64,000 nt of DNA from Candidatus Bathyarchaeum sp. (GCA_026014495.1 JAOZIF010000136.1:3886-67885), one strand, 5' to 3'; positions 17,704 through 24,371 are shown, counted from the stretch's first letter. Notes: a model not told the origin generated them from the sequence alone. Numbers and translations: made by a program.

Positions 17704-18522
17704 ATGAAGACTCAGGATGTTCGTGTTCTTGTTATGCGGGTTGGTGGAACAAACTGTGACGCCGAAACCCAACGAGCCTTCACTGAATTGGGCGCACAGG
17801 CACAGGTGCTTCATTTCAACGAAGTAATAAAAAATCACAGCATTCTAGACTATAACGCGCTTGTGTTTCCGGGCGGATTCTCGTACGGCGACTACGTTAG
17901 GGCTGGAGCAATCTGGGCAACAGGAACCCTAACTAAACTACGTAAAGACCTCAAAGAGTTCGTTGAACAAGAACGACCAATTCTGGGCATCTGCAACGGC
18001 TTCCAAGTATTAGTCGAAGCAGGGCTGCTACCTGCCTTTAATGGAATAAGCGAATACCCAAAAGCAACTTTGGCAACTAACATTCCAATTGGTTACCGCT
18101 GCAAATGGGTTTACCTTAAGCACGAGAACTCTGGAAACTGCATATTCACCAAAAACATACCCAAAAACAAGGTCATGCATATACCCGTAGCTCACGGCGA
18201 GGGACGTTTCTTGTTTGCAAAAGAAAACGAAAAACGTTACCTGCAAAAACTCTACGACAACGACCAACTAGTCTTTAGATACTGCACAAAAGACGGTGAC
18301 TACCCAAACGGAGAATTTCCAGTCAACCCCAACGGAGCATTCCACGACATAGCAGGCATCTGCAACCCACAGGGAACAGTTTTTGGCTTAATGCCACACC
18401 CAGAAAGAGCCTTTTACGGCTGGCAGTTGCCTGACTGGGCAAAAACCGAGCAAGCGCCAACGTTTGGAGACGGAAAACTGGTCTTCGAATCCATGATTGA
18501 TTATTTGAAGAAACGGTTCTAG
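17704..18522 (+). CDS. purQ: Phosphoribosylformylglycinamidine synthase I (glutaminase subunit)
   Basis: 272 aa. GFSYGDY, the catalytic GICNGFQ and MPHPER motifs are present. Confidence 0.9.
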   Translation: MKTQDVRVLVMRVGGTNCDAETQRAFTELGAQAQVLHFNEVIKNHSILDYNALVFPGGFSYGDYVRAGAIWATGTLTKLRKDLKEFVEQERPILGICNGFQVLVEAGLLPAFNGISEYPKATLATNIPIGYRCKWVYLKHENSGNCIFTKNIPKNKVMHIPVAHGEGRFLFAKENEKRYLQKLYDNDQLVFRYCTKDGDYPNGEFPVNPNGAFHDIAGICNPQGTVFGLMPHPERAFYGWQLPDWAKTEQAPTFGDGKLVFESMIDYLKKRF

Positions 18523-19424
18523 ATGGCTTTCAGGTCAGCTAATCTGGGTAGCCCTGTTCTGGCGCCAATCTTTGAGACACAGCGGGACGCAACAAAGTTT
18601 CCCAGCTTTCCACAATCAAACAAGTCCATTCCTTTGGCTAACCCGTAAATGAATCCTGCATCAAAAGCGTCTCCTGCACCTGTTGTGTCCACAACATCAA
18701 CCTTGTATGCTTCAATTGTGTGACTCTCTTTTCCGTCAGTAACATAGCAGCCCCACTTGCCACGTTTAACAGCAACCAACTTTGCGCCCAAATCCATGAA
18801 CGTCAACGCCCCTTCCTTGTAATCTTGTCCTGTAAGCAACTTAACTTCCAGTTCGTTAGGAAGAACAACAAAGCTTCGTTTTATTATCGGCTTTAGCTCA
18901 TCTAAACCCTTTTTTGCATATATTGCTCCGGGGTCAAAACAGACTTTCACGTTCTGAAGCCTAGTTATGAGCTGCTTTTGGGCATCAAAGGGCTTTTGTG
19001 CAACAAACGACGACAAATGCAAAAACTTTGCGCCAGAAAAATACTCCAAATCAACTTCGTCAAAGTCTACCTGATTGTTGACTCCAGCATCAACGTAGAG
19101 TGCCCGATCGCCGTTCTGGTCGATGTATCCCATGACCTTGCCGCTTCTGCCCATTTTTGTAACTGTTATTCCGTTGACGTCAACGCCCTCTTCTCTCAGT
19201 TCGTCTAAGAGGAATTTTCCTTCCATGTCAGAGGCAACCTTTCCAACAAACCCTGTCTTGAGTCCGAGCCTAGCCAGACCCACGATTGTGTTTGCTGCTG
19301 AACCTCCGCCAGAAATCTTAAGGTCAGTGACAAAACCTTCCTCTTCCCTTTTGGCTATCATGTTAACCTTGAAGAGCTTGTCCAAGTTGAGGGCACCAAA
19401 ACCTACGGCATCAAAATCCATCAA
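18519..19424 (-). CDS. PfkB-family carbohydrate/nucleoside kinase
   Basis: 301 aa. GGGSAANT and DTTGAGDAF are the ribokinase-family signatures. The gene overlaps the upstream Ftr-like gene by 4 nt. Confidence 0.8.
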   Translation of the reverse strand: MMDFDAVGFGALNLDKLFKVNMIAKREEEGFVTDLKISGGGSAANTIVGLARLGLKTGFVGKVASDMEGKFLLDELREEGVDVNGITVTKMGRSGKVMGYIDQNGDRALYVDAGVNNQVDFDEVDLEYFSGAKFLHLSSFVAQKPFDAQKQLITRLQNVKVCFDPGAIYAKKGLDELKPIIKRSFVVLPNELEVKLLTGQDYKEGALTFMDLGAKLVAVKRGKWGCYVTDGKESHTIEAYKVDVVDTTGAGDAFDAGFIYGLAKGMDLFDCGKLGNFVASRCVSKIGARTGLPRLADLKAI

Positions 19425-20338
19425 AACAGCCCCCGCAAACCTATCTTGTGTTTACCAAGTTTTCCGCCATAATTTCCTGCAGAAACACGGACAACGCCAT
19501 CAACAGCGCTTGCAGTTTGGATGCCCACCTTCATTGCTTGTTTAACTGCTTTCATTGATGTGCCATTGATTACAATTTCAGGAATATACTTTACGCCCAA
19601 CGGAACCTTAGAGCTTCTTCCCAACTTAGTCTTTAGGCTATGACAGTACGGATGGTTCGTGGTAGGGCCAATCAACGGAAACCGTGTTTCAGGCTTTGAA
19701 CCCGCAGAGCAAACATCAAACGGAGTTACCACACCCTCAACTTGGTGTATGGCATCTAGCGCCTTTTTTCCAGCTTCCATAACTGCCCGTTTGGTTTTGC
19801 ACATAAACCAGAAATTGGCGCCCATAACTCCCCTTGCGTAACCCAGCTCGTTTTCTATCAAAAAATTAGAGACCATCAAAGGAACAACAATCAACTCTCT
19901 TCCGTAACGCTCTTCTGTCCACTCGTAGCCATCTCCACAGTGACCAACCCGCTCCATCATCCCAATCTTGCCCTCAGACTTAGGAAGCGCATCAAAAACA
20001 GCAGTGAACGGCTTCACCAAAATGTCTTGCCGTAGCCTAAACGACAACTCTGCCTCAAACTTTTTCAGTGAACTTTCTAGGGGCTTGTTTTCGTCGATGC
20101 CGCCCCAAAACTGCAAAATTACGCCTTCTCGTTTGTCTGGCGTTTCTTGTTTGTTTAGGTATTTTTCGATGCCGCCTTCTGTTCTGCCGATTACTATTGC
20201 AGGCGTGGCTGTTGCCTGTTGTGCAGCTTTACATAAAACTTCAATATGGCCTGCGGTGACTATGACTCTGGAATATAATCCGTCGAAAGCTTCCGCGTAG
20301 GTATCTTCGATTTCGGCTTTCATAATGTCCCCCTTCAT
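19421..20338 (-). CDS. ftr: Formylmethanofuran:tetrahydromethanopterin formyltransferase family protein (Ftr or Ftr paralog)
   Basis: 305 aa. EIEDTYAEAF, ETPD, GDGY, EIVINGTS and VSAGNYGGKLGKHKIGLRGLF are collinear with M. kandleri Ftr as I recall it. Confidence 0.85.
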   Translation of the reverse strand: MKGDIMKAEIEDTYAEAFDGLYSRVIVTAGHIEVLCKAAQQATATPAIVIGRTEGGIEKYLNKQETPDKREGVILQFWGGIDENKPLESSLKKFEAELSFRLRQDILVKPFTAVFDALPKSEGKIGMMERVGHCGDGYEWTEERYGRELIVVPLMVSNFLIENELGYARGVMGANFWFMCKTKRAVMEAGKKALDAIHQVEGVVTPFDVCSAGSKPETRFPLIGPTTNHPYCHSLKTKLGRSSKVPLGVKYIPEIVINGTSMKAVKQAMKVGIQTASAVDGVVRVSAGNYGGKLGKHKIGLRGLF

Positions 20339-22857: not shown

Positions 22858-22883
22858 TAAGGCTCACCATAACATATGATTGG

Positions 22884-24371
22884 TTATTTTACGGAAGATT
22901 CGTATATTCTTCCTTTTTCGCTGTAACCGTTCTCGAATCTTTCTTTCATTTCGTCAGCCAACTTTTGGGCTAACGGGGTTGGATACTTGCCTGTAATACA
23001 ACCCAGACACAGGTTTTGTTTGTCTAAGCCTGTTGCTTTAACTAGGCCATCAACGGACTGGTAGTTCACGGCGTCTGCGCCCACGATTTCGGCGATTTCT
23101 TCTGCGTCGTGTTGTGAGCCTATTAGTTCACGGTAGGTTGCCATGTCTACGCCGTAGAAGCAGGGTCCGATGATTCTGGGGAATGTGATGAAGAGGTATA
23201 CTTTTTTTGCGCCCATTTTGCGTAGTTTGGTGACTACGACTTTGGTTGTGTCGCCTCTGACTATGCTGTCGTCTACTACTGCGACGTTTTTTCCTGCGAG
23301 TTTGTGGTCTACGATGTTGATTTTTCGGTCTATTGTGTTGTATCTTTGGTCTGAGAGTAGAATAAAGGCTCGTTCTGCGACGTATCTGTGGCGTCTTGAG
23401 GCTCTTTCCCATCTTATGCCTGTTAATTCGTGGTATCCGTAGGCTGCGTCGTTTCCTGTTTCGGGCATGGACATTATAATGTCCACTTTGCTTGTGGTTT
23501 CAGGGTATTCCCATGCAAAGTTTCTGCCAAACTCTTCTCTAACTTCATACACGTATCTGTTTCCTAGTCTTGAGTCTGGTCGGGCAAAGTATGCGAATTC
23601 GAATGCGCATAGTGCGTGTCTTTCTCCAGGGCATAGTTGTTTTCTTTCGAAGCCGTCTTTTTTGGCGACTACAAGTTCGCCTGGGTTTACTTCAAAGTTG
23701 AAGTCAAAACTGTTTATGTCAAGGCCCACGGTTTCTGATGATACGGCGCAGGTTGTTCCGTTTTTGCTGCAGCCGCAGCATAGGGGCCTTATTCCTTGTG
23801 GGTCTCTGAAGGCAAAGAGTTCTCCTTTTTCTGTCATTCCAGCGACGGAGAAGGCGCCTTCGATTTCTTTCATGCACCGTTTTACTGAGGAGGCTAGGTC
23901 GCCGTCTTTTGTTTGTCTTAGGAGTTTTCTGGAGATTAGTTCTGCGTCGTAGTTGAATCGAAAGTTTGGGGTTTCTTCTTGTATTTCTTTTATTATGTCA
24001 GGCGTGTTGACGACGTTGCCGTTGAAGGCGATTGCTATTTGTTTTTCTCCTCGTTTTTCCATGATTGGTTGGGTGCTTTTTACTAGTGACTCGTAGTCTG
24101 TTCCGCCAGATGTTGAGTATCTGACGTGTCCCAATCCTACAGATCCAGGAAGTTCTGTTAGCCATTTTTGGATTTCTTCCTTTTTTACTTTGGGAACAAG
24201 GTCCAAGCCTTTTTGGCTGTGGAATGTTCCGTCGTATGTTAAGAATCCGTGGGATTGGTGGCCGCGGTGGTTTTGGGATCGCAGTCCCCAGTATATGTAG
24301 GGGAAGACTGGTTTGTTTGTGAAGTCTTGTGCTGCGAAAACCCCGCATGCCTCTTTTAACTGTTCGAGCAT
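22884..24371 (-). CDS. purF: Amidophosphoribosyltransferase
   Basis: 495 aa. N-terminal nucleophile context EACGVFAA, the PRTase loop VAVVDDSIVRGDT and C-terminal Cys ligands are present. Confidence 0.9.
   Translation of the reverse strand: MLEQLKEACGVFAAQDFTNKPVFPYIYWGLRSQNHRGHQSHGFLTYDGTFHSQKGLDLVPKVKKEEIQKWLTELPGSVGLGHVRYSTSGGTDYESLVKSTQPIMEKRGEKQIAIAFNGNVVNTPDIIKEIQEETPNFRFNYDAELISRKLLRQTKDGDLASSVKRCMKEIEGAFSVAGMTEKGELFAFRDPQGIRPLCCGCSKNGTTCAVSSETVGLDINSFDFNFEVNPGELVVAKKDGFERKQLCPGERHALCAFEFAYFARPDSRLGNRYVYEVREEFGRNFAWEYPETTSKVDIIMSMPETGNDAAYGYHELTGIRWERASRRHRYVAERAFILLSDQRYNTIDRKINIVDHKLAGKNVAVVDDSIVRGDTTKVVVTKLRKMGAKKVYLFITFPRIIGPCFYGVDMATYRELIGSQHDAEEIAEIVGADAVNYQSVDGLVKATGLDKQNLCLGCITGKYPTPLAQKLADEMKERFENGYSEKGRIYESSVK

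Follow-up and report, generated by a model that had tools for sequence, protein, structure and literature searches.

Step 3 of de novo purine synthesis, the formylation of glycinamide ribonucleotide (GAR) to formylglycinamide ribonucleotide (FGAR), has two known solutions: the folate-dependent PurN (EC 2.1.2.2), which transfers a pterin-bound formyl group to the GAR amine, and PurT, an ATP-grasp enzyme that uses free formate in folate-free organisms. Neither purN nor purT was found by Brown et al. 2011 in two Archaeoglobi (A. fulgidus being among the species reported), four Methanobacteriales (printed as "Methanomicrobiales") and Methanopyrus (M. kandleri), and the same work underlined the purine prototrophy of M. 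thermautotrophicus (PMC3261824). The gap, acknowledged in 2011 and restated in 2022, also covers group 1 of the anaerobic methanotrophic archaea (ANME-1), where PurN and PurT were likewise not found (PMC9012536). In the present work, a stretch of 64,000 nucleotides from Candidatus Bathyarchaeum sp. (GCA_026014495.1, JAOZIF010000136.1:3886-67885; hereafter the window) was analyzed, in which purF and purD are followed by genes for an EhaR-type HAD-superfamily protein, a formyltransferase of the Ftr family (Ftr2) and a PfkB-family kinase. Based on gene context and phyletic pattern, the EhaR-Ftr2-PfkB module is probably responsible for step 3 in organisms without PurN and PurT, with Ftr2 as the formyl-transferring member (a probability of roughly 0.65), and this trio is the strongest candidate to date for GAR formylation, a step that has lacked an enzyme in several archaeal groups since 2011 at the latest.

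The closest described counterpart of the trio belongs to the eha hydrogenase operon of Methanobacteriales. The original annotations of EhaS and EhaT were Ftr and ribokinase, respectively, and the co-transcription of ehaS and ehaT with ehaA-R in Methanothermobacter was taken by Kaster et al. as an argument against those functions, EhaR, EhaS and EhaT being treated as Eha subunits of unknown role (PMC3087415). Later, an uncharacterized "Ftr2" clade was described by Chadwick et al. 2022 in ANME-1, ANME-2a/b, Archaeoglobales, M. kandleri and Methanothermobacter, and was not connected there to the PurN/PurT gap (PMC9012536). No paper assigning a function to EhaR, EhaS/EhaT or the A. fulgidus protein AF1437, or tying Ftr2 or formylmethanofuran to purine or GAR, was found in the literature outside subscription journals, and prior publication is therefore possible.

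The proteins encoded in the window were orthologous to EhaR, EhaS and EhaT and stood in the same order (39%, 56% and 42% identity, respectively, to the Methanobrevibacter proteins). The order HAD-Ftr-PfkB was seen in the window, in 11 loci of other Bathyarchaeia, in two Methanobrevibacter loci and in 10 loci of the phylum of Methanobrevibacter, the full trio being adjacent in 10/10 loci inspected from that phylum. In Methanobrevibacter, the trio comes after EhaN-O-P-Q (small and large hydrogenase subunits and two polyferredoxins), and the HAD protein bears the Joint Genome Institute (JGI) name "energy-converting hydrogenase A subunit R"; the initial annotation had rightly placed such a trio at the 3' end of the eha operon. 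In contrast, purF-purD precede the trio both in the window and in those 11 loci of other Bathyarchaeia, with no hydrogenase genes adjacent.

Within the window, open reading frame calls and family scans placed purF, purD, ehaR, ftr2 and pfkB head to tail on the minus strand (24371 to 18519). As the initial annotation had proposed, the five genes are tightly packed, with a gap of 26 nt between purF and purD, an overlap of 1 nt between purD and the HAD gene, a gap of 3 nt between the HAD gene and ftr2, and an overlap of 4 nt between ftr2 and pfkB, and the unit is convergent with purM, purS, purL and purQ, all four on the plus strand; the stop codons of pfkB and purQ overlap. The start of pfkB is listed as TTG, although an ATG one codon further in is the likely start. 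The products of purM, purS, purL and purQ (steps 5 and 4) depend on step 3 for their FGAR. The ten-gene order of S-adenosylmethionine (SAM) synthetase, purF-purD-HAD-Ftr-PfkB and convergent purQ-purL-purS-purM was kept in 11/11 long loci from other Bathyarchaeia genomes, which argues that the arrangement is not due to chance. The gap of 214 nt between purF and the SAM synthetase gene is presumed to hold the promoter of the five-gene unit, co-transcription being deduced from gene spacing alone.

The absence of PurN and PurT, first noted for the window, which encodes steps 1, 2, 4 and 5, extended to the whole assembly (Bathyarchaeia, 2.19 Mb, 93% complete): there were no Formyl_trans_N matches in the window or in the 2.19-Mb assembly, and the best PurT match in the assembly reached 28 bits against a cut-off of 502. 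Neither purN nor purT was found in a one-contig congener (G292) or in the closed Candidatus Bathyarchaeum chromosome CP070820. Since purF, D, L, S, Q and M as well as Prs, PurC, PurE and PurP were all encoded in the genome, every purine step checked other than step 3 is accounted for. A search for purP retrieved two tandem paralogues of this formate-dependent formyltransferase of 5-aminoimidazole-4-carboxamide ribonucleotide (AICAR), at G000:C69:25930-27395 (L004 and L005; PF06849, 170 and 145 bits). The second PurP was considered as the missing GAR enzyme and set aside as unlikely for a general answer, since Methanobacteriales have a single PurP (PMC3261824).

Ftr2 is a member of the Ftr family, with matches to FTR (146 bits), FTR_C (185 bits) and NF002554 (334 bits, cut-off 297), while TIGR03119, the equivalog model for fhcD, gave 231 bits and stayed under its cut-off of 293. 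The protein aligned over its full length with solved Ftr enzymes (PDB 1FTR, 1M5H and 1M5S; 198 bits to A. fulgidus Ftr), retaining both domains and the Glu of the E-I-V-I-N-G motif, but was only 35-40% identical to canonical forms. A canonical Ftr was indeed found in the same genome on a separate contig (C59), 35% identical to the window copy, which is thus not the sole Ftr of the organism. In a maximum-likelihood tree of 56 full-length representatives, obtained from a search of 1.8 billion proteins, the canonical clade (38 rows, including the canonical Ftr of this very genome) was split from the rest with support 100/99; Ftr2 of the window fell outside it and grouped with Methanobrevibacter EhaS (support 100/96). 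Its closest Ftr-like relatives were from Bathyarchaeia, including chromosome CP070820. Ftr2 is accordingly a paralogue and not the Ftr of the one-carbon (C1) pathway.

At the residue level, E254 of Ftr2 (in the motif P-E-I-V-I-N-G) aligned with a Glu of the solved Ftrs that is at least 85% conserved in both clades; by residue count on the alignment, we take it to be the counterpart of Glu245, presumably catalytic in M. kandleri Ftr. Approximately 10 positions were conserved in Ftr2 and different in canonical Ftr (T45, P46, R52, W78, C134, C180, I223, G224, P225 and P253), and an insertion of about nine residues was present in Ftr2 relative to the canonical enzyme. Retention of the Glu alongside clade-specific substitutions is what one would expect if Ftr2 were still an active transferase but had changed its substrate. 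One subclade (P0126, P0127, P0133 and P0143), sister to Ftr2, was approximately 45% identical to the window protein and may have yet another function.

In order to describe the distribution of the module, an even sample of 151 Bathyarchaeia genomes was surveyed, in which Ftr2-type proteins (at least 279 bits and 53% identity) were separated from Ftr1-type proteins (at most 208 bits); the resulting counts ignore kinship, and related genomes are not independent observations. EhaR was present in 62/151 genomes, 57 of them with Ftr2 and the other five with a divergent PurN-family formyltransferase of approximately 275-285 aa standing in the module where Ftr2 would be (labeled FT-M). Ftr2 was never seen without EhaR, and EhaR was present in 0/89 genomes lacking both Ftr2 and FT-M. 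Formyl_trans_N proteins occurred in 54/151 genomes and PurT-like proteins in 13/151, and the overlap between Ftr2 and PurN/PurT-like proteins was confined to two of the 57 Ftr2 genomes (G351, with a PF00551 match, and G203, with a weak PurT-like match). Among the PurD-positive genomes, 113/120 had at least one of Ftr2, FT-M, PurN and PurT, and 111/120 had exactly one.

The distribution of Ftr2 followed PurD and the absence of PurN/PurT. PurD-negative families (f14, f16 and f19) had neither Ftr2 nor EhaR, while many of their genomes retained Ftr1, which indicates that Ftr2 tracks purine synthesis and not the C1 pathway. Moreover, the state changed within families: f11 comprised Ftr2 genomes, PurT genomes and one PurN genome, and f21 comprised Ftr2 and FT-M genomes, so that the pattern is not the result of a single inherited split. 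PurT, which alternates with the Ftr2 module within f11, is not homologous to EhaR, Ftr2 or PfkB. In the phylum of Methanobrevibacter, PF00551 and PurT were each found in 0/121 genomes, and EhaR in 199/201. The trio was thus nearly complementary with PurN/PurT in the 151 Bathyarchaeia genomes and in the 121 genomes of the Methanobrevibacter phylum.

The five Bathyarchaeia genomes with EhaR and no Ftr2 each had one Formyl_trans_N protein, in or beside the module (5/5). One such locus (L041, from G236) reads purF-purD-FT-M-EhaR-PfkB-FolD, with an FT-M of 281 aa and a divergently oriented gene for a PurH-type AICAR formyltransferase, and a second one (L042) has the same order from purF to PfkB. 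The best NCBIfam model for FT-M was PurN (75 bits, below its cut-off), and its closest solved relatives were GAR transformylases of E. coli and others; its names are "phosphoribosylglycinamide formyltransferase" at JGI and "formyltransferase family protein" at NCBI. FT-M retained N-x-H and L-D-x-G-P motifs aligned with E. coli PurN, which we take to hold the catalytic Asn106/His108 and Asp144, while what is presumably the phosphate-binding loop of E. coli PurN (G-N-G-S-N) was replaced by S-S-G-R-D-A-A. Because FT-M and Ftr2 share the same neighbors, two unrelated formyltransferase folds alternate at one position, one variant adjoining folate enzymes and the other belonging to an enzyme family of the methanofuran/tetrahydromethanopterin (H4MPT) type.

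Bacterial relatives extended this pattern. FT-M was 46% identical to a protein from a Thermodesulfobacteriota metagenome-assembled genome, where the order is PfkB-FT-M-EhaR. A scan of metagenomes retrieved at least 571 FT-M loci; neighborhoods were counted in the best 80 of them, and among these EhaR lay within 4 kb of FT-M in 53/58 loci with room and PfkB within 5 kb in 28/37. One locus (L061), a bacterial-type pur operon with canonical scores, reads purQ-purL-purF-PfkB-FT-M-EhaR-purH, and in Bacillus-type operons, as in B. subtilis, it is purM-purN that sit between purF and purH. A deep second clade of EhaR adjoined purD and purF in an archaeal contig (L050), and was found with PfkB and Ftr2 in a different arrangement, again as an adjacent full trio, in L040. 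The linkage of the trio with purine genes is therefore conserved and recurs in unrelated arrangements (11 Bathyarchaeia loci, L041/L042, L050 and L061). As a separate observation, a PHP-domain phosphoesterase of approximately 218 aa was encoded directly upstream of FT-M in 34/40 long bacterial loci (e.g. L053:6336-6992), and PHP/PHP_C proteins of comparable size (2355-2987 and 11154-11807) also lay close to an Ftr2 relative in the DPANN-like contig L039, where Prs and a small HAD protein flank that relative.

The proposal of the initial annotation, that the trio delivers the formyl group to purine synthesis, possibly as a replacement of PurN/PurT, is thus supported by comparative genomics (the gap, the paralogy and the conserved purine linkage). 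Three kinds of independent support can be named: the distribution of the trio, which almost excludes that of PurN/PurT in both large samples, the presence of a PurN-family protein in the slot of Ftr2, and the position between purF and purH in a bacterial-type pur operon.

Regarding the constant partners of the formyltransferase, the 368-aa EhaR protein carried the motifs D16-C-E-G-P20 and G242-D-S-I-T-D247 already recognized from the window alone, with a Glu and not an Asp two residues after the nucleophile. All HAD core motifs (D16, S115-T116-S117, K220 and D243/D247) were present and were invariant in sets of 21 and of 14 sequences, archaeal and bacterial members included, as were several cap residues and two C-terminal arginines. 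Its AlphaFold model (pLDDT, the per-residue confidence score, 94) has a HAD fold with a large cap. The nearest solved structure was that of AF1437 (1Y8A; A. fulgidus, from structural genomics, function unknown), with TM scores of 0.78 by query and 0.92 by target and 26% identity, although AF1437 is shorter (313 aa), followed by SerB-type HAD-IB phosphatases and cytosolic 5'-nucleotidase III. EhaR homologues were also detected in Micrarchaeota, Aenigmarchaeota (DPANN), Thermoplasmatota, ANME-2, Nitrospirae, Thermodesulfobacteriota and Spirochaetota (including P0320, P0395, P0312 and P0378); since the family spreads far beyond methanogens, the name "hydrogenase subunit R" is misleading for it as a whole. 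In one Bathyarchaeia genome (G283:C1:1527439-1528203), the EhaR match covered residues 114-368 only, inside an open frame of 604 aa, which could be a fusion or a rearranged gene; PurD was not detected in this genome at the threshold used.

The kinase belongs to the PfkB/ribokinase family, with the invariant motifs G10xxN13xD15, G40GSAAN45 and D246xTxAGD252, which we take to correspond to the site for the ribose cis-diol (furanose) and to the catalytic-Asp motif of E. coli ribokinase. These assumed roles would fit phosphorylation of the 5-hydroxyl of some ribofuranosyl compound. With the ribokinase model TIGR02152 it reached 160 bits, below the cut-off of 300, the other specific NCBIfam kinase models were also far below their cut-offs, and comparison with solved kinases (YdjH, fructokinase and ribokinase) gave no discrimination of the substrate by sequence. 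A prediction of an EhaR-PfkB complex from paired alignments scored 0.00 in a run without controls, and carries no weight for or against an interaction. Because both proteins accompany a formyltransferase of either type, in archaea and in bacteria, EhaR and PfkB probably act on the ribosyl acceptor and not on the C1 carrier.

PurD also differed between genomes with and without the module. Its scores in Bathyarchaeia were bimodal: nearly all module genomes, with purD directly upstream of EhaR, fell between 220 and 270 bits, while most PurN/PurT genomes fell between 300 and 505 bits. The split held even within family f11, and one genome (G289) had one PurD of each kind. The divergent subtype may reflect transfer of the whole operon as a unit, or an altered specificity of PurD; that it travels with the module hints at functional coupling.

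If the module performs step 3, Ftr2 would take the formyl group from N5-formyl-H4MPT or from formyl-methanofuran and put it on the amino group of the glycinamide. The most economical chemistry would be the known Ftr reaction directed at an amine, with the glycinamide amine in the place otherwise taken by the aminomethyl group of methanofuran. The proposed reaction is the same as that of PurN, but the fold of Ftr2 is unrelated, its carriers would be those of methanogenic C1 metabolism, and each of the two formyltransferases, Ftr2 and FT-M, is accompanied by a HAD protein and a kinase, neither of which canonical PurN needs; in folate-using lineages, the slot would be filled by FT-M. Eha is reported to have an anaplerotic role, replacing C1 units that are drawn off for biosynthesis, and the location of the trio at the end of eha in the phylum of Methanobrevibacter fits this role. 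Labeling of M. stadtmanae, as summarized in PMC3261824, traced purine C8 to C2 of acetate and was most consistent with a pterin carrier.

A role for all three proteins in step 3 can also be conjectured, in which EhaR would remove the 5'-phosphate of GAR, the formyltransferase would act on the riboside, and PfkB would re-phosphorylate the product to FGAR. The formyltransferase would be Ftr2 (for formate bound to methanofuran or H4MPT) or the PurN-derived FT-M (for folate), and the gene order purF-purD-EhaR-Ftr2-PfkB would correspond to the order of the reactions. By spending one ATP, the same price as PurT, PfkB would trap this product, the transfer from a weak donor being itself near equilibrium. 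In methanogens, the route would also give a reason for encoding the trio together with Eha, which replenishes the C1 units lost from the methanogenic cycle. This three-step route is tentative and rather doubtful, and both it and the specific donor (formyl-H4MPT or formyl-methanofuran) rank below the claim that the module performs step 3.

Several observations weigh against assigning step 3 to the module. The support comes entirely from context and phyletic pattern in related, hence non-independent, genomes, and a plain one-enzyme replacement of PurN leaves the constant phosphatase-like protein and the kinase unexplained. In the Bathyarchaeia sample, seven PurD-positive genomes showed none of the four systems and two showed two of them. 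Among the metagenome loci of FT-M, pur genes were nearby in only 2/40 long ones; many of the loci come from a single bacterial lineage with conserved synteny, in which DprA, TopA, EF-P, trigger factor and ClpP are neighbors and no pur genes lie in the vicinity. A locus of the sister subclade of Ftr2 (L038, in the P0127 subclade; 8001-8993) had no EhaR or PfkB nearby, its neighbors being carbamoyl-phosphate synthase, 4HFCP_synth (methanofuran synthesis) and housekeeping genes. Relatives of Ftr2 occurred in the DPANN-like contig L039, with one cluster member labeled Aenigmarchaeota, and the presence of methanofuran or H4MPT in such an organism is doubtful. One EhaR of ANME-2 stood alone beside FmdE, and ANME-2a and ANME-2b were reported to have both PurN and Ftr2 (PMC9012536). 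Finally, formyl-H4MPT has been viewed as donating its formyl group poorly (PMC3261824, citing Maden).

It may be asked whether the formyltransferase alone (Ftr2 or FT-M) formylates GAR as PurN does, with EhaR and PfkB as an independent, co-inherited pair that converts, for example, ribose or ribose 1-phosphate to ribose 5-phosphate and PRPP (phosphoribosyl pyrophosphate). The presumed ribokinase-type sugar-binding motifs of PfkB agree with such a pair, its best families being ribokinase and ribose-1-phosphate kinases, all below cut-off. The genes can also part company: in two genomes (G212 and G204) purD keeps FT-M as its companion, and EhaR and PfkB are encoded elsewhere, and two loci (L048 and L049) have EhaR-PfkB pairs with no neighboring formyltransferase. 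Yet EhaR was present in 62/62 Bathyarchaeia genomes with Ftr2 or FT-M and in none of the 89 others, it lay near FT-M in most of the best metagenome loci, bacterial and archaeal, and a pair serving general ribose salvage would not be expected to be so tightly coupled to formyltransferases of two unrelated folds, which makes an independent pair unlikely. A further candidate role, the replacement of PRPP synthetase by EhaR and PfkB, was rejected, since Prs was above cut-off in every genome checked (5/5).

The scarcity of pur genes around the long bacterial loci would agree with a different explanation, in which GAR is formylated by another enzyme and the trio serves the synthesis or salvage of a different formylated ribosyl compound, such as a cofactor intermediate, a modified nucleoside or a salvage product; its proximity to pur genes would then reflect shared precursors such as PRPP or ribose phosphate. 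A UbiA prenyltransferase gene after the trio in one locus (L047), the co-occurrence of PurN and Ftr2 reported for ANME-2, and the fact that a plain PurN-like reaction needs neither kinase nor phosphatase all point that way. This explanation, however, leaves without a reason the near-exclusivity with PurN/PurT in both genome samples, the absence of the module from PurD-less genomes that keep Ftr1, and the trio between purF and purH in L061, and the step-3 gap would stay open in all these lineages. We know of no pathway that needs formyltransferase, phosphatase and kinase activities such as those of the trio together, and another formylated compound is considered quite improbable as the product.

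A third possibility is that Ftr2 acts like FhcD of methylotrophs and helps to release formate from formyl-methanofuran or formyl-H4MPT, with PurP using the formate on AICAR and a PurP paralogue using it on GAR. Two tandem PurP paralogues are indeed at hand in this genome, and the structure matches of Ftr2 included PDB 6S6Y, which we take to be the Fhc complex, where Ftr homologues take part in formate release. Nevertheless, Ftr2 stayed below the cut-off of the fhcD model, and its replacement by a PurN-type transferase with PurN-like motifs points to transfer and not to hydrolysis. The single PurP of Methanobacteriales leaves no spare paralogue for GAR (PMC3261824), and formate-dehydrogenase mutants of M. 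marburgensis need added formate, which they would not if EhaS supplied it (PMC3087415). Formate release by Ftr2 is therefore very unlikely.

Least credible of all is that Ftr2 is a mere second formylmethanofuran:H4MPT isoenzyme, with EhaR and EhaT as structural or accessory Eha subunits, as the co-transcription with ehaA-R in Methanothermobacter (PMC3087415) and the Ftr subfamily score and aligned Glu of Ftr2 might suggest, since no eha homologue was found within approximately 6 kb on either side of the trio in 11 Bathyarchaeia loci (whole genomes were not searched for eha), FT-M loci were bacterial or had no eha genes in view, EhaR and PfkB have the invariant HAD residues and the catalytic motif expected of enzymes, and Ftr2 was absent where Ftr1 is present and PurD missing.

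Assignment of step 3 to the EhaR-Ftr2-PfkB module would concern organisms that include the best-studied methanogens and the dominant methanogens of the human gut and the rumen, and offers a possible function for EhaR, EhaS and EhaT, which have been "hydrogenase subunits" without one since 1999. If it is correct, a formyl group of the methanofuran/H4MPT system would, for the first time to our knowledge, be seen to enter the biosynthesis of a metabolite that does not belong to the C1 pathway, and the view that purines receive no formyl groups from H4MPT would have to be revised. Thousands of genes now named Ftr, ribokinase, HAD hydrolase or PurN would be given corrected annotations, and the metabolic models built for methanogens and for Bathyarchaeia would be affected. 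In the gut and the rumen, the host itself lacks the module, which could serve as a selective anti-methanogen target. The three-enzyme route, were it true, would be a third, previously unrecognized form of purine step 3, widespread in archaea and bacteria. The features of the locus are listed in Table 1.

Table 1. Features of the purine locus of Candidatus Bathyarchaeum sp., in window positions.
Feature	Position	Strand	Basis
purF, amidophosphoribosyltransferase (step 1), first gene of the unit	22884..24371	-	TIGR01134, 328 bits, full length; GATase_6/7 domains
purD, GAR synthetase (step 2), divergent subtype	21448..22857	-	GARS_N, GARS_A, GARS_C; TIGR00877, 247 bits, cut-off 288
EhaR-type HAD-superfamily protein, 368 aa, predicted phosphohydrolase/phosphotransferase	20342..21448	-	Weak HAD-IIB/HAD-IB matches; motifs
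Ftr2 (EhaS orthologue), 305 aa, proposed formyl-transferring enzyme of step 3	19421..20338	-	Pfam FTR and FTR_C
PfkB-family kinase (EhaT orthologue), ribokinase-like, 301 aa	18519..19424	-	PF00294, 177 bits
Divergent intergenic region between purF and the SAM synthetase gene, 214 nt	24372..24585	.	Presumed promoter region, from gene spacing
purM	13597-14685	+	TIGR00878, 266 bits, above cut-off
purS	15056-15328	+	TIGR00302, 70 bits, above cut-off
purL	15325-17700	+	TIGR01736, 684 bits, above cut-off
purQ	17704-18522	+	NF002252, 312 bits, above cut-off

Elsewhere in the 64-kb window, no tRNA genes or Rfam families were found. Genes for adenylate kinase (11813-12457, minus strand) and aIF5B (9936-11714, minus strand) lie just upstream of purM. 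Just past the SAM synthetase gene, a fused restriction-modification methylase of 1057 aa, similar to Eco57I/MmeI, is encoded at 26349-29522 (minus strand), in a patch with a G+C content of approximately 35%, compared with approximately 43% elsewhere, which is probably a horizontally acquired island. In addition, two tandem MoeA paralogues (418 and 409 aa; 35549-38036, minus strand) and a ThiF-family protein (30439-31434, minus strand) were detected; these are molybdopterin-related, in keeping with a formylmethanofuran dehydrogenase of the molybdenum or tungsten type in this organism.

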